A stretch of DNA of 64,000 nt, from assembly GCF_055900595.2 (NCBI RefSeq), contig NZ_CM148325.1, one strand, 5' to 3'. This document shows positions 9,745 through 38,961 of the stretch, piece by piece; position 1 is the first letter of the stretch, and the number at the start of each line of letters is the position of its first letter. The notes below the pieces were generated by a model that ran no database searches, was not told the DNA's origin, and saw only the letters and a program-made list of their open reading frames with translations. The translations under genes were made by a program, and so were the position numbers.

Positions 9745-10455
9745 GTGCACAGAAAACCCCCAGCTAGGCTGGGGGTTCCGGAAAGCTTTCAGCTTTGAGC
9801 CAGTTATTAAAACCCCTTTTGATTTGTTAAAACACCTTGCGGTCTGGCAACTGCAAGTGTCAAACAAGAAATCAAAAGGGGGTCCCAATGGGGGACGAAA
9901 AGAGCTTAGCGCACACCCGCTGGAACTGTAAATATCACATAGTTTTTGCGCCGAAATACCGAAGACTGGCGTTTTACGGAGAGAAGCGTAGGGCGATAGG
10001 CAGTATTTTGAGAAAGCTGTGTGAGTGGAAAAGCGTACGGATTCTGGAAGCAGAGTGCTGCGCAGATCATATCCATATGCTTGTGGAAATCCCACCCAAA
10101 ATGAGCGTATCCGGCTTTATGGGATATCTGAAAGGGAAAAGCAGTCTGATGCTTTACGAGCAGTTTGGGGATTTGAAATTCAAATACAGAAACAGGGAGT
10201 TCTGGTGCCGAGGGTACTATGTCGATACGGTGGGTAAGAACACGGCGAAGATACAGGACTACATAAAGCACCAGCTTGAAGAGGATAAAATGGGGGAGCA
10301 GTTATCGATTCCATATCCGGGCAGCCCGTTTACGGGCCGTAAGTAACGAAGTTGAATGCAAATGTCAGATCGTATGCGCCTGTTAGGGCGCGGCTGGTAA
10401 CAGAGCCTTACAGGCGCATTTGAAAAACCTCCGGCTATGCCGGAGGATATTTATT
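9745..10455 (+). mobile_element. IS200-type insertion sequence (IS200/IS605 family); boundaries approximate
   Basis: Single 152-aa tnpA; perfect palindrome cccccagc-tag-gctggggg at 9757-9775 on the upstream side and two hairpins downstream (about 10374-10420 and 10428-10447); no terminal inverted repeats, as expected for IS200. Confidence 0.7.
9888..10346 (+). CDS. tnpA: IS200 transposase TnpA (Y1 HuH transposase)
   Basis: ATG at 9888 within ORF 9837..10346; protein MGDEKSLAHTRWNCKYHIVFAPKYRR...ADHIHML...RGYYVDTVGKN matches IS200 TnpA, including the HxH motif and the C-terminal tyrosines. Confidence 0.9.
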   Translation: MGDEKSLAHTRWNCKYHIVFAPKYRRLAFYGEKRRAIGSILRKLCEWKSVRILEAECCADHIHMLVEIPPKMSVSGFMGYLKGKSSLMLYEQFGDLKFKYRNREFWCRGYYVDTVGKNTAKIQDYIKHQLEEDKMGEQLSIPYPGSPFTGRK

Positions 10456-10599: not shown

Positions 10600-10743
10600 A
10601 ACGGTAAAGCCCTCACCGAAGCGAGGGCTTGAAGGAGAAGGGTTATGATGCGACTCGTCATCATACTGATTGTACTGTTACTGATAAGTTTGCCAGCTTA
10701 TTAACAGTCAGTCACAGGGGAGGAGTCATCCTCCCTTACCCTT
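10600..10743 (-). ncRNA. sibC: SibC antisense sRNA (antitoxin of ibsC); ends approximate
   Basis: Minus-strand sigma70-like promoter (TTGACA at 10779-10774, 17-bp spacer, TAATTT at 10756-10751) reading across ibsC; hairpin gccctc-accgaag-cgagggc at about 10611-10630. Confidence 0.5.
10645..10704 (+). CDS. ibsC: type I toxin IbsC (19-aa hydrophobic peptide)
   Basis: atgatgcgactcgtcatcatactgattgtactgttactgataagtttgccagcttattaa encodes MMRLVIILIVLLLISLPAY, preceded by the Shine-Dalgarno gaaggagaag; located between serA and fau as in K-12. Confidence 0.7.
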   Translation: MMRLVIILIVLLLISLPAY

Positions 10744-10804
10744 ACTCACTAAATTAGGTTAAAGAATCAACGATGTCAATCAGGGCGATGCAGGTGTGTC
10801 GCCC

Positions 10805-11425: not shown

Positions 11426-11611
11426 AGGGAATCTCCGAGATGCCGCCGCAGGCTGTAACCCTTGAACCCTTGGTTCAAGGTGAATGTGTCGTCACAGTTT
11501 TAAGGCTTCTCGGACGGACCGAGCATGCTCACCAACCGCGGAGCGCCACATTCTTGTGGTATGAAATATCGGCTCAGGGGACTGGCCCGCTTGCGAACAT
11601 CTCAGAGAAAT
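11426..11611 (-). ncRNA. ssrS: 6S RNA
   Basis: Reverse complement begins AUUUCUCUGAGAUGUUCGCAAGCGGGCCAGUCCCCUGAGCC and ends ...CAUCUCGGAGAUUCCCU, matching E. coli 6S RNA; 3' end good to about 2 nt. Confidence 0.92.
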
Positions 11612-21492: not shown

Positions 21493-21591
21493 GCCTGATG
21501 CACCTCGTTTATCAGGCCTACATAGTCTGTGCAATGTATTGAATTTGCACGATCTTGTAGGCTGGATAAGGCGTTCACGCCGCATCCGGCA
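21493..21591. repeat. BIME: two inverted REP units
   Basis: gcctgatgcacctcgtttatcaggcctaca and tgtaggctggataaggcgttcacgccgcatccggca match the REP consensus in opposite orientations. Confidence 0.65.
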
Positions 21592-29349: not shown

Positions 29350-31083
29350 GTGAAACAACAGATACAACTTCGTCGCCGTGAAGTCGATGAAACGGCAGAC
29401 TTGCCCGCTGAATTGCCTCCCTTGCTGCGCCGTTTATATGCCAGCCGGGGAGTACGCAGTGCGCAAGAACTGGAACGTAGTGTAAAAGGTATGCTGCCCT
29501 GGCAGCAACTGAGCGGCGTCGAAAAGGCCGTTGAGATCCTTTACAACGCTTTTCGCGAAGGAACGCGGATTATGGTGGTCGGTGACTTCGACGCCGACGG
29601 TGCCACCAGCACGGCTCTAAGCGTGCTGGCGATGCGCTCGCTTGGTTGCAGCAATATCGACTACCTGGTACCAAACCGGTTCGAAGACGGTTACGGCTTA
29701 AGCCCGGAAGTGGTTGATCAGGCCCATGCCCGTGGCGCGCAGTTAATTGTCACGGTGGATAACGGTATTTCCTCCCATGCGGGGGTTGAACACGCTCGCT
29801 CGTTGGGCATTCCGGTTATTGTTACCGATCACCATTTGCCGGGCGAAACATTACCCGCGGCGGAAGCGATCATTAACCCTAACTTGCGCGACTGCAATTT
29901 CCCGTCGAAATCACTGGCAGGCGTGGGGGTGGCGTTTTATTTAATGCTGGCGCTGCGCACCTTTTTGCGTGATCAGGGCTGGTTTGATGAGCGTGGTATC
30001 GCAATTCCTAACCTGGCAGAACTGCTGGATCTGGTCGCATTGGGGACAGTGGCAGACGTCGTGCCGCTGGATGCTAATAATCGCATTCTGACCTGGCAGG
30101 GGATGAGTCGCATCCGTGCCGGAAAGTGCCGTCCAGGGATTAAAGCGCTGCTGGAAGTGGCCAACCGCGATGCGCAAAAACTCGCCGCCAGCGATTTAGG
30201 TTTTGCGCTGGGGCCACGTCTCAATGCTGCCGGGCGACTGGATGATATGTCCGTTGGTGTGGCGCTGTTGCTGTGCGACAACATCGGCGAAGCGCGCGTA
30301 CTGGCAAATGAACTCGATGCGCTAAACCAGACGCGAAAAGAGATCGAACAGGGAATGCAGGTTGAAGCCCTGACCCTGTGCGAGAAACTGGAGCGCAGCC
30401 GCGAGACACTACCCGGCGGGCTGGCAATGTATCACCCGGAATGGCATCAGGGCGTGGTTGGTATTCTGGCTTCGCGTATTAAAGAGCGTTTTCACCGTCC
30501 GGTTATCGCTTTTGCGCCTGCGGGTGACGGTACGCTGAAAGGTTCCGGTCGCTCCATTCAGGGGCTGCATATGCGTGATGCGCTGGAGCGGCTAGACACA
30601 CTCTACCCCGGCATGATGCTGAAATTTGGCGGTCATGCGATGGCGGCAGGCCTGTCGCTGGAAGAGGATAAATTCGAACTCTTTCAGCAACGGTTTGGCG
30701 AACTGGTTACTGAGTGGCTGGACCCTTCGCTATTGCAAGGCGAAGTGGTGTCAGACGGTCCGCTAAGCCCAGCCGAAATGACCATGGAAGTGGCGCAGCT
30801 GCTGCGCGATGCTGGCCCGTGGGGGCAGATGTTCCCGGAGCCGCTGTTTGACGGTCATTTCCGTCTGCTGCAACAGCGACTGGTGGGTGAACGTCATTTG
30901 AAAGTCATGGTCGAACCGGTCGGCGGCGGTCCGCTGCTGGACGGTATTGCTTTTAATGTCGATACCGCCCTCTGGCCGGATAATGGCGTGCGCGAAGTGC
31001 AACTGGCTTACAAGCTGGATATCAACGAGTTTCGTGGCAACCGCAGCCTGCAAATTATCATCGACAATATCTGGCCAATTTAG
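29350..31083 (+). CDS. recJ: single-stranded-DNA-specific exonuclease RecJ
   Basis: 577-aa ORF with GTG start and DHH motifs. Confidence 0.93.
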   Translation: MKQQIQLRRREVDETADLPAELPPLLRRLYASRGVRSAQELERSVKGMLPWQQLSGVEKAVEILYNAFREGTRIMVVGDFDADGATSTALSVLAMRSLGCSNIDYLVPNRFEDGYGLSPEVVDQAHARGAQLIVTVDNGISSHAGVEHARSLGIPVIVTDHHLPGETLPAAEAIINPNLRDCNFPSKSLAGVGVAFYLMLALRTFLRDQGWFDERGIAIPNLAELLDLVALGTVADVVPLDANNRILTWQGMSRIRAGKCRPGIKALLEVANRDAQKLAASDLGFALGPRLNAAGRLDDMSVGVALLLCDNIGEARVLANELDALNQTRKEIEQGMQVEALTLCEKLERSRETLPGGLAMYHPEWHQGVVGILASRIKERFHRPVIAFAPAGDGTLKGSGRSIQGLHMRDALERLDTLYPGMMLKFGGHAMAAGLSLEEDKFELFQQRFGELVTEWLDPSLLQGEVVSDGPLSPAEMTMEVAQLLRDAGPWGQMFPEPLFDGHFRLLQQRLVGERHLKVMVEPVGGGPLLDGIAFNVDTALWPDNGVREVQLAYKLDINEFRGNRSLQIIIDNIWPI

Positions 31084-31173
31084 CGTCATATTATCTATAA
31101 AAAAGAGCGTGGATTCGGTACAATCCCGCTCTTATCACCGCATTTTGACTAGCTCAATAAAAGAAATCAGACC

Positions 31174-32272
31174 ATGTTTGAAATTAATCCGGTAAATAAT
31201 CGCATTCAGGACCTCACGGAACGCTCCGACGTTCTTAGGGGGTATCTTTGACTACGACGCCAAGAAAGAGCGTCTGGAAGAAGTAAACGCCGAGCTGGAA
31301 CAGCCGGATGTCTGGAACGAACCCGAACGCGCACAGGCGCTGGGTAAAGAGCGTTCCTCCCTCGAAGCCGTTGTCGACACCCTCGACCAAATGAAACAGG
31401 GGCTGGAAGATGTTTCTGGTCTGCTGGAGCTGGCTGTAGAAGCTGACGACGAAGAAACCTTTAACGAAGCCGTTACTGAACTCGACGCCCTGGAAGAAAA
31501 ACTGGCGCAGCTTGAGTTCCGTCGTATGTTCTCTGGCGAATATGATAGCGCCGACTGCTACCTCGATATTCAGGCAGGTTCTGGCGGTACGGAAGCACAG
31601 GACTGGGCGAGCATGCTTGAGCGTATGTATCTGCGCTGGGCTGAATCGCGTGGTTTCAAAACTGAAATCATCGAAGAGTCGGAAGGTGAAGTGGCGGGTA
31701 TTAAATCCGTGACTATCAAAATCTCCGGCGATTACGCTTACGGCTGGCTGCGTACTGAAACCGGCGTTCACCGCCTGGTGCGCAAGAGCCCGTTTGACTC
31801 CGGCGGTCGTCGCCACACGTCGTTCAGCTCCGCGTTTGTTTACCCGGAAGTCGATGATGATATCGATATCGAAATCAATCCGGCGGATCTGCGCATCGAC
31901 GTTTATCGCGCATCCGGCGCGGGTGGTCAGCACGTTAACCGTACCGAATCTGCGGTGCGTATTACTCACATCCCAACCGGGATTGTGACCCAATGCCAGA
32001 ACGACCGTTCCCAGCACAAGAACAAAGACCAGGCCATGAAGCAGATGAAAGCGAAGCTTTATGAACTGGAGATGCAGAAGAAAAATGCCGAGAAACAGGC
32101 GATGGAAGATAACAAATCTGACATCGGCTGGGGCAGCCAGATTCGTTCTTATGTCCTTGATGACTCCCGCATTAAAGATCTGCGTACCGGGGTAGAAACT
32201 CGTAACACGCAGGCAGTGCTGGACGGCAGCCTGGATCAATTTATCGAAGCAAGTTTGAAAGCAGGGTTATGA
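31174..32272 (+). CDS. prfB: peptide chain release factor 2, needing a programmed +1 frameshift (codons 1-25 at 31174..31248, then 31250..32272)
   Basis: ATG at 31174 encodes [25 protein letters not shown], then in-frame TGA at 31249-31251 within cttAGGGGGtatCTTTGAC; the +1 frame continues [12 protein letters not shown]... through the GGQ motif to the stop at 32272 (365 aa total). Confidence 0.9.
31237..31252 (+). other. prfB: prfB autoregulatory +1 frameshift site (internal Shine-Dalgarno AGGGGG plus CUU UGA C slippery stop)
   Basis: Sequence AGGGGGTATCTTTGAC read directly. Confidence 0.9.
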
Positions 32273-36087: not shown

Positions 36088-36521
36088 CAGTGTTTCTCCT
36101 TTCGCCCGCCAGAGTAAAAAGCAACCGTTTACGTTATTGAAACTGTCTAAACATATGCTCGTGGAGTGCCAGTTTTTGCGAGGAAGGGGAGTTAGAGACA
36201 GGAATTGCGGAGGCAATCACATAATCGTGGTTAAACCACGAAAATGAGAAGAGAACCTGACAATGGAATTATCTGTAATTTTCTCATATTGATATTTCAT
36301 TAATCATTCTGGCATGTCGCACTCTCGCATTTAATCGTTTTTATCTGGATAGCGCTCTTTTGGTCGGCAATGTTGAAATAATGAAAGCGGCACAGATTGA
36401 GGGGTAATAATTTGAACTTAGTCACAAACTTATAATTAAAAAGTCATTCTACCTAATATATGCCCGTTTATTGCATCGCGAACTTTGAGAAGACATAACT
36501 CATTAAATGAAAGGGATGCAA

Positions 36522-38441
36522 ATGAATAAGTTTATCGCTGCTGAAGCTGCGGAATGTATAGGCTGTCATGCTTGTGAAATTGCCTGTGCGGTGGCACACA
36601 ATCAAGAAAACTGGCCGCTGAGTCACAGTGACTTTCGACCGCGTATCCACGTTGTAGGGAAAGGCCAGGCTGCGAATCCGGTGGCCTGTCATCACTGCAA
36701 CAATGCTCCTTGCGTTACGGCTTGTCCGGTTAATGCTCTGACTTTCCAGCCCGATAGCGTACAACTGGACGAGCAAAAATGTATTGGTTGTAAAAGATGC
36801 GCAATCGCTTGCCCCTTTGGCGTCGTTGAGATGGTCGATACGATTGCGCAGAAATGCGACCTTTGTAATCAGCGCAGTTCCGGCACGCAAGCCTGTATTG
36901 ACGTATGCCCAACACAGGCGTTACGGCTGATGGACGATAAAGGGTTGCAGCAGATAAAGGTGGCCCGCCAGCGCAAAACGGCAGCAGGAAAAGCGTCATC
37001 AGACGCTCAGCCATCTCGCAGTGCAGCGTTGCTCCCCGTTAACTCGCGTAAAGGCGCAGATAAAATTTCAGCGAGTGAACGGAAAACCCACTTTGGCGAA
37101 ATTTATTGCGGGCTGGATCCACAACAAGCGACTTATGAGAGTGACCGCTGTGTTTATTGTGCCGAAAAAGCTAACTGCAACTGGCATTGCCCGCTGCATA
37201 ACGCTATTCCGGATTACATCCGTCTGGTGCAGGAAGGAAAGATTATTGAAGCGGCAGAACTTTGCCACCAGACCAGTTCCTTACCAGAAATCTGCGGCAG
37301 GGTATGTCCACAGGACCGTCTTTGTGAAGGCGCATGTACTTTGAAAGATCACTCTGGCGCAGTCTCTATCGGGAATCTGGAACGCTACATCACCGATACC
37401 GCGTTGGCGATGGGCTGGCGTCCTGATGTCAGCCATGTTGTTCCCCGTATCGAAAAAGTGGCGGTGATTGGCGCAGGGCCTGCAGGGTTAGGGTGTGCTG
37501 ATATTCTGGCGCGCGCAGGAGTTCAGGTTGATGTCTTTGATCGCCATCCAGAAATTGGCGGTATGCTGACTTTTGGCATTCCTCCTTTCAAACTCGATAA
37601 AACAGTCTTAAGCCAGCGGCGTGAGATATTCACCGCAATGGGAATCGACTTTCATCTCAACTGTGAGATTGGCCGCGATATTACCTTTAGCGATTTAACT
37701 TCTGAATATGATGCAGTTTTCATCGGCGTGGGGACTTACGGGATGATGCGAGCAGATCTGCCGCATGAAGATGCGCCCGGTGTCATTCAGGCTCTACCGT
37801 TCCTGACTGCCCATACCCGCCAGTTGATGGGATTGCCGGAGTCTGAAGAGTATCCGCTGACGGATGTGGAAGGTAAGCGAGTCGTGGTATTGGGCGGTGG
37901 CGATACGACCATGGATTGTTTGCGGACTTCCATCCGCCTCAATGCCGCCAGCGTGACCTGCGCGTATCGTCGTGATGAAGTCAGTATGCCGGGCTCGCGC
38001 AAAGAGGTGGTCAATGCGCGCGAGGAAGGTGTCGAGTTTCAGTTCAATGTTCAGCCGCAATATATCGCTTGTGACGAAGATGGGCGTTTAACTGCGGTGG
38101 GCCTTATTCGTACCGCTATGGGTGAGCCGGGTCCGGATGGACGCCGTCGTCCTCGTCCGGTAGCGGGTTCAGAGTTTGAGCTGCCTGCCGATGTTCTGAT
38201 TATGGCCTTTGGTTTCCAGGCGCATGCCATGCCGTGGTTGCAAGGCAGCGGAATTAAGCTCGATAAATGGGGCCTGATTCAAACCGGGGACGTCGGGTAT
38301 TTACCCACCCAGACGCATCTGAAAAAAGTCTTTGCTGGTGGGGATGCAGTTCATGGCGCGGATCTGGTTGTCACTGCAATGGCCGCAGGAAGGCAGGCGG
38401 CGCGCGATATGTTAACTCTGTTTGATACGAAGGCATCGTGA
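36522..38441 (+). CDS. ygfT: Fe-S / FAD-NAD(P) oxidoreductase YgfT (N-terminal 4x[4Fe-4S] ferredoxin module fused to a GltD-like domain)
   Basis: ORF 36507..38441; Cys clusters [37 protein letters not shown] and CDLC, followed by the dinucleotide-binding motif VIGAGPAG. Confidence 0.85.
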
Positions 38442-38929
38442 TGAAATCGTTAATTATCGTTAATCCGGCTGACTGTATTGGCTGCCGTACTTGTGAAGTG
38501 GCCTGTGTGGTCGCTCACCCTTCAGAACAGGAGTTGAATGCCGATGTCTTTTTACCCCGGCTGAAGGTACAGCGACTGGACTGCATCAGTGCGCCGGTGA
38601 TGTGCCATCAGTGTGAAAACGCCCCTTGTGTTGGCGCTTGCCCCGTGGGAGCGCTGACGATGGGCGAGCAGGTGGTGCAGGCCAATTCTGCCCGTTGTAT
38701 TGGCTGTCAGAGTTGCGTCAGTGCGTGTCCGTTTGGGATGATCACCATTCAGTCGTTGCCGGGGGATACCCGGCAACAAATTGTGAAATGCGATCTCTGT
38801 GAACAGCGGGAAGAGGGGCCTGCCTGCGTTGAATCTTGCCCGACACAGGCGCTGCAGTTGCTTACTGAAAGAGAACTCAGGCTAGTCCGCCAGCAGCGTA
38901 TTGTTGCCAGCGGTGAGAATCCTCTCTGA
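38438..38929 (+). CDS. ygfS: 4Fe-4S ferredoxin-type protein YgfS
   Basis: 163-aa ORF with the same four Cys-cluster arrangement as the YgfT N-terminus; start overlaps the ygfT stop. Confidence 0.85.
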
Positions 38930-38933
38930 AAGA

Positions 38934-38961
38934 ATTCTCCGCGCTGAAAGGCGCGGAGAAT
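38934..38961. terminator. bidirectional hairpin between convergent ygfS and ghxQ
   Basis: attctccgcgc-tgaaag-gcgcggagaat perfect inverted repeat. Confidence 0.5.

Follow-up and report, generated by a model that had tools for sequence, protein, structure and literature searches.

The window analysed in our study, a stretch of DNA of 64,000 nucleotides (NCBI RefSeq assembly GCF_055900595.2, contig NZ_CM148325.1), was found to contain the adjacent genes ygfT and ygfS on the plus strand. [quoted passage not shown] The junction of the two genes (nucleotides 38429–38443, plus strand) was read as atcGTGATGaaa and contained a GAAGG Shine-Dalgarno-like box (38429–38433), the TGA stop codon of ygfT (38439–38441) and the ATG start codon of ygfS (38441–38443). 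The first-pass annotation had given YgfS a length of 163 aa, which corresponds to a GTG start at 38438, and an overlap of 4 nt with ygfT. The overlap itself was found, but it spans 1 nt (TGATG) when translation begins at the ATG; the 4 nt overlap (GTGA) occurs only with the GTG start, which is without annotation or orthologue support. The GTG start was rejected in favour of the ATG at 38441 on the basis of RefSeq and of the N-termini of the YgfS orthologues, all of which start with M-(K/T/S)-x-(F/L)-I and align to this ATG. The spacing from the GAAGG box was 7 nt to the ATG, whereas it was only 4 nt to the GTG.

Seven lineages besides the window had a stop/start overlap (TGATG or ATGA) with AAGGAG-like boxes ahead of it, so that eight lineages share such a junction, and the two genes are, as judged from the sequence, translationally coupled whichever start codon applies. 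A sigma-54 binding site, TATGCCCGTTTATTGCA, was located upstream of ygfT (nucleotides 36459–36475, plus strand) and was identical to the listed ChIP-seq site OS32, which has been assigned to ygfT (PMC4591121). No sigma-70-like promoter was found by the promoter scan in the intergenic region upstream of ygfT, and the scan for sigma-70 promoters and intrinsic terminators gave nothing exceeding the shuffle expectation; the uacT-ygfT intergenic region contained only two weak inverted-repeat pairs. Between the convergent ygfS and ghxQ genes, RNA folding revealed a strong hairpin with an 11-bp G+C-rich stem (nucleotides 38935–38960, no strand assigned) of −27.4 kcal/mol (z = −6.3), and none of 200 shuffles was equally stable. 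This hairpin marks the end of the predicted two-gene ygfT-ygfS operon. The overlaps in eight lineages, the upstream sigma-54 site and the hairpin after ygfS thus point to a translationally coupled operon of two genes. Three minus-strand ORFs within ygfT (140, 94, and 88 aa) were found to be unsupported, and no Rfam family was found in nucleotides 36522–38929. In the literature, ygfT is described as strongly induced by urate.

YgfT was found to contain a four-cluster ferredoxin module (aa 1–138, nucleotides 36522–36935, plus strand), delimited by the YgfS alignment, the cysteine positions, the Fer4_11 match and a match to HycB (7z0s_B, E = 4e-30). The cysteines of the module were at positions 12, 15, 18, 22, 56, 59, 64, 68, 87, 90, 93, 97, 112, 115, 125, and 129. 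The module is followed by a putative helix (aa ~139–154) and then by a linker of low complexity that leads to the GltD-like part (nucleotides 36936–37082, plus strand), both delimited from a poor AlphaFold model with a low-confidence stretch at aa 152–179. This full-length model, for which 11 sequences were used, reached a pLDDT of 61 and a pTM of 0.55, too low to show the packing of the module on the GltD-like part. A Fer4_20 domain (PF14691, E = 7e-37; aa 188–298, nucleotides 37083–37415, plus strand) contained cysteines 210, 213, 219, and 223 and 258, 262, 268, and 272, which are predicted to bind two further [4Fe-4S] clusters. The FAD/NAD(P)-binding Pyr_redox_2 domain (PF07992) was found at aa 312–623 (nucleotides 37455–38390, plus strand) and matched GltD (6s6s_G, E = 5e-108), NfnI and dihydropyrimidine dehydrogenase (DPD). 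YgfT scored 1501.8 bits with the equivalog model NF009451 (cut-off 1154) and 849 bits with TIGR01318 (cut-off 483). These scores, together with Fer4_20 and Pyr_redox_2, place YgfT in the YgfT (UacF) equivalog family and among the GltD-like Fe-S flavoproteins, and the GltD-like flavoprotein domain named in the first-pass annotation was confirmed.

The pairwise alignment by BLASTP, which the first-pass annotation had recommended, gave a single end-to-end match of YgfS 2–160 to YgfT 1–157, with 74 of 163 positions identical (45%), 10 gap positions and an E-value of 4e-40. When the 16 cysteine columns were excluded, the identity was ~39% (58/147). YgfS and YgfT each contained the four cysteine motifs noted earlier once, in an identical order: CIGCxxCExAC at position 12 of YgfS and 12 of YgfT, CHxCxNAPCVxACP at 55 and 56, CIGCxxCxxACPFG at 86 and 87, and CDLC at 117 and 112, respectively. 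Both YgfS and the N-terminal module of YgfT (YgfT-N) contained 16 predicted ligand cysteines in four groups, and each is predicted from these to bind four [4Fe-4S] clusters. YgfS of the window carried a 17th cysteine, C48, a strain-specific S48C substitution relative to K-12.

The 16-cysteine pattern that defines the HycB/HydN-type four-cluster ferredoxins (Fer4_11 class), namely CxxCxxCxxxC, CxxCxxxxCxxxCP, CxxCxxCxxxCP, and CxxC...CxxxCP in fixed order, was present in YgfS and in YgfT 1–130. In an alignment of 77 sequences, 15 of the 16 cysteine columns were invariant and the remaining one was at least 90% conserved; YgfS matched 1782 clusters (50% identity clustering) at E ≤ 1e-10. The pattern is a signature of the family and not specific to the pair.

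YgfS resembled the solved members of the Fer4_11 class in sequence and in fold. Its AlphaFold model had a pLDDT of 93.9 and ended in a C-terminal helix (aa 143–158, pLDDT ~92), with which the helix after the YgfT module was aligned by BLASTP. The top Foldseek matches of YgfS were HycB, HycB3/4, WorS, and AorA (TM 0.73–0.81), and both YgfS and YgfT-N matched HycB 7z0s_B, HycB3/4 7qv7, WorS 9mqx_E, and AorA 8c0z_C. HycB 7z0s_B was the best PDB match of YgfS both by sequence (E = 1.3e-29) and by Foldseek (E = 3e-15, TM 0.78). In WorS, AorA, and HycB3/4 the C-terminal helix binds the next subunit and so forms a chain of clusters (PMC12318220). Helices comparable to those of this docking subclass are modelled at aa 143–158 of YgfS and, in the poor model, at aa 139–154 of YgfT.

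The first-pass annotation had described YgfS as duplicating the YgfT module; if this is taken to mean a local, pair-specific copy, it was not upheld. YgfS was 42–47% identical to AegA-N, YsaA, HydN, HycB, and HyfA, and among the E. coli proteins its BLASTP bit scores were 140 with AegA-N, 138 with YsaA, 129 with YgfT-N, and 127 with HydN; the best E. coli match of YgfT-N was likewise AegA-N. The AegA family model scored YgfS at 163.7 bits vs 136.1 bits for the YgfT model, and YgfS orthologues from other families were 55–60% identical, above every E. coli paralogue. An earlier neighbour-joining tree, built from 50%-identity representatives alone, was star-like and uninformative. The YgfS and YgfT-N groups were resolved in a 33-taxon neighbour-joining tree because true orthologues had been added; each group had 93% bootstrap support and the two were separate and not sisters; with weak support, YgfT-N joined AegA-N, and YgfS was placed near HydN/YsaA. 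A recent tandem duplication was rejected on the basis of the paralogue matrix and the two trees. That ygfS arose inside the operon as a copy of the 5' part of ygfT, the two being mutual closest relatives, would fit the adjacency of the genes on the same strand, the 45% identity that extends through the module and the helix that both have behind the last cysteine group, and, because the deep nodes of the tree are weak (9–34%), a very old tandem origin is formally conceivable; however, the closeness of YgfS to the unlinked AegA-N and YsaA, its higher score with the AegA model, its nearer orthologues elsewhere and the separate groups in the tree make a local copy very improbable. YgfS and YgfT-N (~155 residues) are old paralogues of the HycB/HydN-type ferredoxin family and not a recent copy. 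Their kinship within this family was already published by Pinske 2018 (PMC6004506). The resemblance is textbook-level family paralogy, and its value lies in the genomic context.

The neighbourhood in other genera was examined by exact-protein look-ups; a scan of the genome collection for YgfT used overly specific peptide patterns and gave no more than 12 loci. The pair ygfT-ygfS proved to be conserved in Enterobacterales, being present in Escherichia spp., Klebsiella, Enterobacter, Serratia, and Mixta as well as on one metagenome contig, with a related pair in Buttiauxella. The overlap of the ygfT stop and the ygfS start was kept in every lineage examined that had both genes, and the YgfS orthologue group was kept over three families of Enterobacterales. 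ygfS may be dispensable, since it was frameshifted on contig L011, truncated in some E. coli records and missing in Citrobacter sp. R56, in which 58 bp separate ygfT from the next gene, ghxQ. Among Escherichia species the identity of YgfS was 89–92% vs 98% for UacT and GhxQ. A molybdenum hydroxylase gene set always adjoined the pair. E. coli has xdhD-ygfM at this place; Klebsiella, Enterobacter, Serratia, Mixta, and Buttiauxella have genes for a Fer2 protein and for a fused Xdh-like protein of ~1070 aa. In Klebsiella, Enterobacter, and Serratia, the locus with uacT and ygfT-ygfS also contained a gene of 715–717 aa with a TGA at codon 140. The Klebsiella protein of this class scored 1045 bits with TIGR01591 (formate dehydrogenase alpha; cut-off 666), and the urate locus of these three genera is predicted to carry a selenocysteine fdhF, a context that is new in the present analysis. 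The gene order on metagenome contig L008 was ygfT, a ygfS-like gene and an fdhF-like gene of the cysteine type, with overlapping genes, and at locus L009 a YgfS-like gene stood immediately upstream of a selenocysteine fdhF. No fdhF was found within 10 kb of ygfT-ygfS in E. coli, Mixta, or Buttiauxella.

Elucidation of the anaerobic urate pathway (XdhD, YgfK, SsnA, and others) dates only from 2023–2025, and the pathway is relevant to the disposal of urate in the human gut. An electron-relay role of YgfS and YgfT-N would be the natural reading by analogy, as their closest solved homologues HycB, HycB3/4, WorS, and AorA are relay or "nanowire" subunits. To this extent the electron-transfer wire into the YgfT flavoprotein that was suggested in the first-pass annotation is plausible; the direction of electron flow is one that we infer. 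We lean somewhat towards a relay from FdhF through YgfS and YgfT-N to the GltD-like domain, with YgfS and YgfT produced from one coupled operon, feeding the breakdown of urate. In this relay, formate would be oxidised by FdhF, a selenoprotein formate dehydrogenase, and the electrons would then pass through YgfS and the fused YgfT-N module, over up to eight clusters, to the two GltD-type clusters of YgfT and on to FAD, which would reduce NAD(P)+. The NAD(P)H would drive the two steps of anaerobic urate breakdown in which XdhD-YgfM and YgfK carry out NADH-dependent reductions. YgfS would be the FdhF-docking subunit, as HycB is in formate hydrogenlyase, and would contact YgfT, whose fused module may serve as a permanent lead into the flavoprotein.

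The 45% identity, the 16 cysteines, the helix in both modules, the GltD-like acceptor end and the conserved coupled pair are in line with this relay, as is the presence of fdhF or an fdhF-like gene near ygfT-ygfS in Klebsiella, Enterobacter, and Serratia and on L008, and near the YgfS-like gene at L009. According to papers citing Iwadate and Kato 2019, aegA and ygfT take part in formate-dependent urate degradation, and AegA/YgfT were proposed to carry electrons from formate dehydrogenase to NADP+ or urate. In two-hybrid assays, HycB, HydN, and YsaA bound FdhF, and AegA bound those ferredoxins and not FdhF (PMC6004506); XdhD-YgfM and YgfK of E. coli use NADH in vitro (literature). Counting against the relay, ygfS is lost or damaged in some genomes, fdhF is absent within 10 kb in the three groups named above, and HydN and YsaA enhance only the FDH-H dye activity and are dispensable for H2 production (PMC6004506). 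A more specific form of the proposal, put forward tentatively, is that YgfS is the dedicated FdhF dock of a soluble, previously undescribed FdhF-YgfS-YgfT complex, a formate:NAD(P)+ or possibly formate:Xdh oxidoreductase, with ten [4Fe-4S] clusters in YgfS and YgfT in addition to the one of FdhF.

Alternatively, the Fe-S chain of XdhD or the Xdh-like protein might receive electrons directly from YgfS and YgfT, the source being either formate (through FdhF) or NAD(P)H (through the GltD-like domain); the two proteins would then not merely provide free NAD(P)H. The constant presence of the molybdenum hydroxylase gene set beside the pair, and the Serratia unit of xdh-like, Fer2, fdhF, uacT, and ygfT-ygfS, which lacks ssnA or ygfK downstream within the 10-kb flank, would agree with this; XdhAC of clostridia makes no use of NAD(P)H (literature), and Iwadate and Kato, as far as citing papers convey, allowed for straight transfer to urate. 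We nevertheless regard it as unlikely, for the XdhD of E. coli, which is purified together with its FAD subunit YgfM, needs nothing but NADH to reduce urate in vitro (literature), so an extra wire to XdhD is unnecessary, and the GltD-like domain retains the full NAD(P)-binding fold. It is also rather improbable that YgfS is a non-essential, replaceable helper like HydN and YsaA, giving a modest gain in partner activity or assembly and forming no fixed subunit of a YgfT complex. The loss, frameshift and truncation of ygfS and its faster divergence relative to UacT/GhxQ are what such a helper would lead one to expect; deletions of hydN and ysaA cut the FDH-H dye activity partly and left H2 production unaffected, and members of the family cross-interact widely in two-hybrid assays (PMC6004506). 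Yet the stop/start overlap is conserved in all lineages with both genes, which fits the production of YgfS in step with YgfT, and orthologues of YgfS are retained in three families.

If the relay from FdhF through YgfS and YgfT is true, it would show how formate electrons enter the E. coli pathway, account for the formate need of enterobacterial anaerobic urate degradation and supply the step, so far missing, by which electrons enter the 2,8-dioxopurine pathway. The genomic footprint of the complex would then be the selenocysteine fdhF found at the urate locus in Klebsiella, Enterobacter, and Serratia, the uncharacterised YgfS would gain a role, and a GltD-type flavoprotein would join the enzymes wired by HycB-like modules.

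Among the known systems, HycB, a small subunit linking FdhF to hydrogenase 3 in the formate hydrogenlyase of E. coli (7z0s chain B), shares with YgfS the fold and the four-group pattern of 16 cysteines; the pattern is also shared by the HycB paralogues HydN, YsaA, and HyfA. HycB contains an insert of ~30 residues between cysteine groups III and IV, whereas YgfS is shorter, and HycB is part of a membrane-bound hydrogenase complex, whereas the gene for YgfS adjoins that of a GltD-like flavoprotein, with no hydrogenase genes in the vicinity. HycB3/HycB4 of the hydrogen-dependent CO2 reductase (7qv7), WorS of WorABCSL (9mqx), and AorA of AorABC (8c0z) contain modules homologous to YgfS (E = 1e-27 to 1e-19). 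A helix comparable to the docking C-terminal helix of these nanowire subunits was found in YgfS, but polymerisation is not indicated for YgfS. The cluster strings in WorABC and AorC end at an NAD-linked flavoprotein module (PMC12318220); in YgfT, one module is covalently fused to the flavoprotein, which is of the GltD type and not of the BfuABC type. In E. coli, the YgfT paralogue AegA has the same ferredoxin module and GltD-like domain (55% identity) and, according to the literature, is involved in the same formate-dependent urate phenotype, with only modest induction of aegA by urate; aegA stands alone beside narQ and nudK without a following ygfS-like gene, whereas ygfT has ygfS. GltD, NfnB, and the N-terminal unit of DPD, with two [4Fe-4S] clusters, FAD, and NAD(P)H, are matched by YgfT ~176–631, which would probably carry the same set (E = 5e-108 with GltD 6s6s_G; DPD and the large subunits of Nfn also match). 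YgfT differs in its N-terminally fused HycB-type four-cluster module, which was present in none of the solved GltD-type relatives found.

YgfS aligned over its full length with residues 1-157 of YgfT, the N-terminal ferredoxin part (YgfT-N), in a single BLASTP alignment (~45% identity, 60% positives, E=4e-40). The four Cys motifs quoted in the first-pass annotation were found once each and in the same order in YgfS and YgfT, with 16 ligand cysteines per module, and the identity was still ~39% without the cysteines. The resemblance claimed there is therefore correct and statistically solid. Residues 1-138 of YgfT contained the four-cluster module as in YgfS, followed by the aligned helix and a linker. 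The post-linker part contained a Fer4_20 domain, predicted to hold two more clusters, and a Pyr_redox_2 domain for FAD and NAD(P), and its matches to GltD (E=5e-108), Nfn large subunits and dihydropyrimidine dehydrogenase agreed with the GltD-like flavoprotein described earlier. The full-length YgfT model was too poor for judging domain packing.

The same annotation had YgfS duplicating the ferredoxin module of YgfT; a relationship specific to this pair was not borne out. The K-12 paralogues were taken out and their modules aligned with YgfS. AegA-N (45% identity, 140 bits) and YsaA (47%, 138 bits) scored higher than YgfT-N (~45-46%, 129 bits), followed by HydN (43%, 127 bits), HyfA (42%, 112 bits), HycB (42%, 105 bits) and YdhY, YdhX and NrfC (~30%, 58-72 bits). 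The best E. coli match to YgfT-N was AegA-N, not YgfS, and the NCBIfam models scored YgfS higher as AegA (163.7 bits) than as YgfT (136.1 bits); HydN scored 134. When YgfS was searched exhaustively against 1.84 billion representative proteins, 1782 clusters matched at E<=1e-10. At 90% clustering, true YgfS orthologues were 55-60% identical and came from Klebsiella, Enterobacter, Yokenella, Pluralibacter, Kluyvera, Raoultella, Trabulsiella, Cedecea, Serratia, Mixta, Pantoea alhagi and Pseudocitrobacter. In a neighbour-joining tree of 33 taxa, the YgfS orthologues and the YgfT N-modules came out as separate groups, each with 93% bootstrap support, and were not sisters; YgfT-N grouped weakly with AegA-N, and the position of YgfS near HydN/YsaA was also weak. 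Support for the deep nodes was poor, and the branching order of the subfamilies is tentative. YgfS and YgfT-N split before Enterobacteriaceae, Erwiniaceae and Yersiniaceae diverged. A literal tandem duplication, in which ygfS is a copy of the YgfT module, would account for the full-length likeness of the neighbours, but with the higher AegA-N and YsaA scores and the non-sister groups it is very improbable. The likeness is a known family relationship; HydN, YsaA, HycB, HyfA, AegA, YgfS and YgfT were already treated as one paralogous group (Pinske, 2018, PMC6004506).

The region belongs to the ordinary E. coli chromosome; with 3.5 kb around ygfT-ygfS as the query, matches of 95-99% identity were obtained in 5330 of 5426 complete E. 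coli genomes. The genes are annotated in the order uacT (-), ygfT (36522-38441, +), ygfS (38441-38929, +) and ghxQ (-). The pair was 97.8% identical to K-12 at the DNA level, with four residue differences in YgfT and three in YgfS (S48C, T81A, R148L). S48C (codon 48, 38582-38584) and R148L also set this strain apart from the closest RefSeq strain; the first adds a 17th cysteine, which is not part of the cluster motifs, and the second falls within the C-terminal helix. Between Escherichia species (Escherichia sp. E1V33 and E. whittamii), identity was clearly lower for YgfT (92-93%) and YgfS (89-92%) than for the neighbouring UacT, GhxQ, GuaD, XanQ and XdhD (97-99%). Elsewhere in the window, Rfam matches were found to the STnc490 sRNA (9755-9878, +), a Sib antitoxin RNA (10629-10779, -), 6S RNA (ssrS, 11428-11611, -) and, borderline, the ES036 sRNA (21514-21556, -). 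The known programmed +1 frameshift of prfB (~31175-32272, +) gave two ORFs (30947-31195 and 31391-32272), which are a joined CDS in RefSeq.

The junction of the two genes reads atcGTGATGaaa. The 4-nt overlap and 163 aa first given for ygfS were not upheld, as 4 nt is obtained only with a GTG start; the ATG at 38441, used in RefSeq for the closest strain and K-12, gives 162 aa and shares one base with the stop codon (TGATG). This ATG position was also the start of the orthologues in Klebsiella, Enterobacter, Serratia, Mixta, Citrobacter MGH106 and two metagenome contigs, where the overlap was TGATG or ATGA with a GAAGG/AAGGAG box 7-10 nt upstream. Translational coupling is accordingly both real and conserved.

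A sigma-54 site with a weak motif, TATGCCCGTTTATTGCA, was located by ChIP-seq upstream of ygfT (36459-36475, +). The same table contains sites at hydN, hycA, hypA, xdhA, ygeW and ygfK, and ferredoxin-family genes and the purine cluster therefore come under common sigma-54 control. No sigma-70-like promoter stood out in the intergenic region. Urate strongly induces ygfT. Between the ygfS stop codon and the convergent ghxQ lies a hairpin of high predicted stability (-27.4 kcal/mol, z=-6.3), which would close the ygfT-ygfS operon. The PurR-box-like GGGCAAGCGATTGCGC inside ygfT (36799-36814, -) has been reported as a PurR ChIP-chip site of ygfT-ygfS (PMC3159470); its position matches exactly the stretch that encodes the third Cys motif (CAIACP).

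The resemblance of YgfS to YgfT-N was already known in substance; the novelty lies in the genomic context of the pair elsewhere, with fdhF, which is new information in this analysis. The pair was present in other Escherichia species, Citrobacter sp. MGH106, Klebsiella, Enterobacter, a Serratia species, Mixta and Buttiauxella, with overlapping stop and start codons in every one of these lineages; in Buttiauxella it is a related pair, which adjoins an Xdh-like gene. In Klebsiella, Enterobacter and Serratia, the locus contained a gene of 715-717 codons that comes after uacT, with ygfT-ygfS on the other strand; codon 140 of this gene is TGA, within the motif CCARV*HGPSVAG. The Klebsiella product scored 1045 bits against TIGR01591 (formate dehydrogenase alpha; cut-off 666) and is a selenocysteine-containing homologue of FdhF. 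This fdhF was found with uacT and ygfT-ygfS in the urate locus at L025 3772-5919 (-) in Klebsiella, L029 3811-5964 (-) in Enterobacter and L030 3997-6144 (-) in Serratia. In the annotated ygfT-ygfS region of E. coli, fdhF was not found. In a metagenome locus (L008), ygfT (69% identical), a ygfS-like gene (52%) and an fdhF-like gene followed one another with overlaps of 4 and 8 nt; on this short contig (1-1565), the fdhF-like gene contained Cys for selenocysteine at the active site (CCARVCHGPSVAG). In another locus (L009), a YgfS-like gene lay directly 5' of a selenocysteine fdhF. The Serratia xdh-like/Fer2/fdhF/uacT/ygfT-ygfS block was followed, over the 10-kb flank covered, by unrelated genes for amidase, D-lactate dehydrogenase and type VI secretion in place of ssnA-ygfK (L030 10517-20498), which suggests that it can move as a unit.

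The electron wire to the GltD-like domain proposed earlier is a reasonable hypothesis; it agrees with published proposals and gains some support from the fdhF synteny. As described in papers citing Iwadate and Kato (2019), aegA and ygfT (uacF) take part in formate-dependent anaerobic urate degradation, and AegA/UacF were proposed to pass formate dehydrogenase H electrons to NADP+ or urate. In two-hybrid assays, FdhF was bound by HycB, HydN and YsaA, whereas AegA bound these three but not FdhF (Pinske, 2018, PMC6004506). FdhF would dock on a free HycB-type subunit, which in this operon would be YgfS; from YgfS, electrons would go to the module fused in YgfT, and NAD(P)+ would be reduced at the GltD-like domain to supply both reductive steps of urate breakdown. 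This relay is the simplest model fitting all the evidence and is, as a whole, somewhat probable; the specific FdhF-docking role of YgfS is tentative. In the pathway defined in 2025, XdhD-YgfM reduces urate to 2,8-dioxopurine, which YgfK reduces further; both E. coli enzymes were active with NADH in vitro, and the electron donor of the clostridial enzyme is not known. Direct wiring of YgfS/YgfT into the molybdenum hydroxylase is unlikely. Citrobacter sp. R56 contained ygfT (80% identical) without ygfS, with 58 bp from ygfT to ghxQ (L015 11917-11975). In a Klebsiella/Enterobacter-like contig (L011 4447-4906), ygfS was frameshifted near codon 67-71 among intact neighbours; this product occurred on three contigs, so the gene could be a genuine pseudogene. 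Among E. coli records, several YgfS forms were truncated. These losses, and the location of fdhF elsewhere in E. coli, disfavour a strict requirement for YgfS. The reading of YgfS as a dispensable helper, like HydN, has a low probability.

YgfS is predicted to be a complete four-cluster ferredoxin (AlphaFold pLDDT 93.9), and its best structural matches were the formate hydrogenlyase subunit HycB, HycB3/HycB4 from hydrogen-dependent CO2 reductase, WorS and AorA (TM 0.73-0.81; sequence E-values 1e-29 to 1e-19). In WorS, AorA and HycB3/4, the C-terminal helix docks on the next module to form a cluster chain, which in WorABCSL and AorABC terminates in an NAD-linked flavoprotein module (PMC12318220). 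YgfS resembles HycB3/HycB4, WorS and AorA as a homologous module with a C-terminal helix predicted at residues 143-158.
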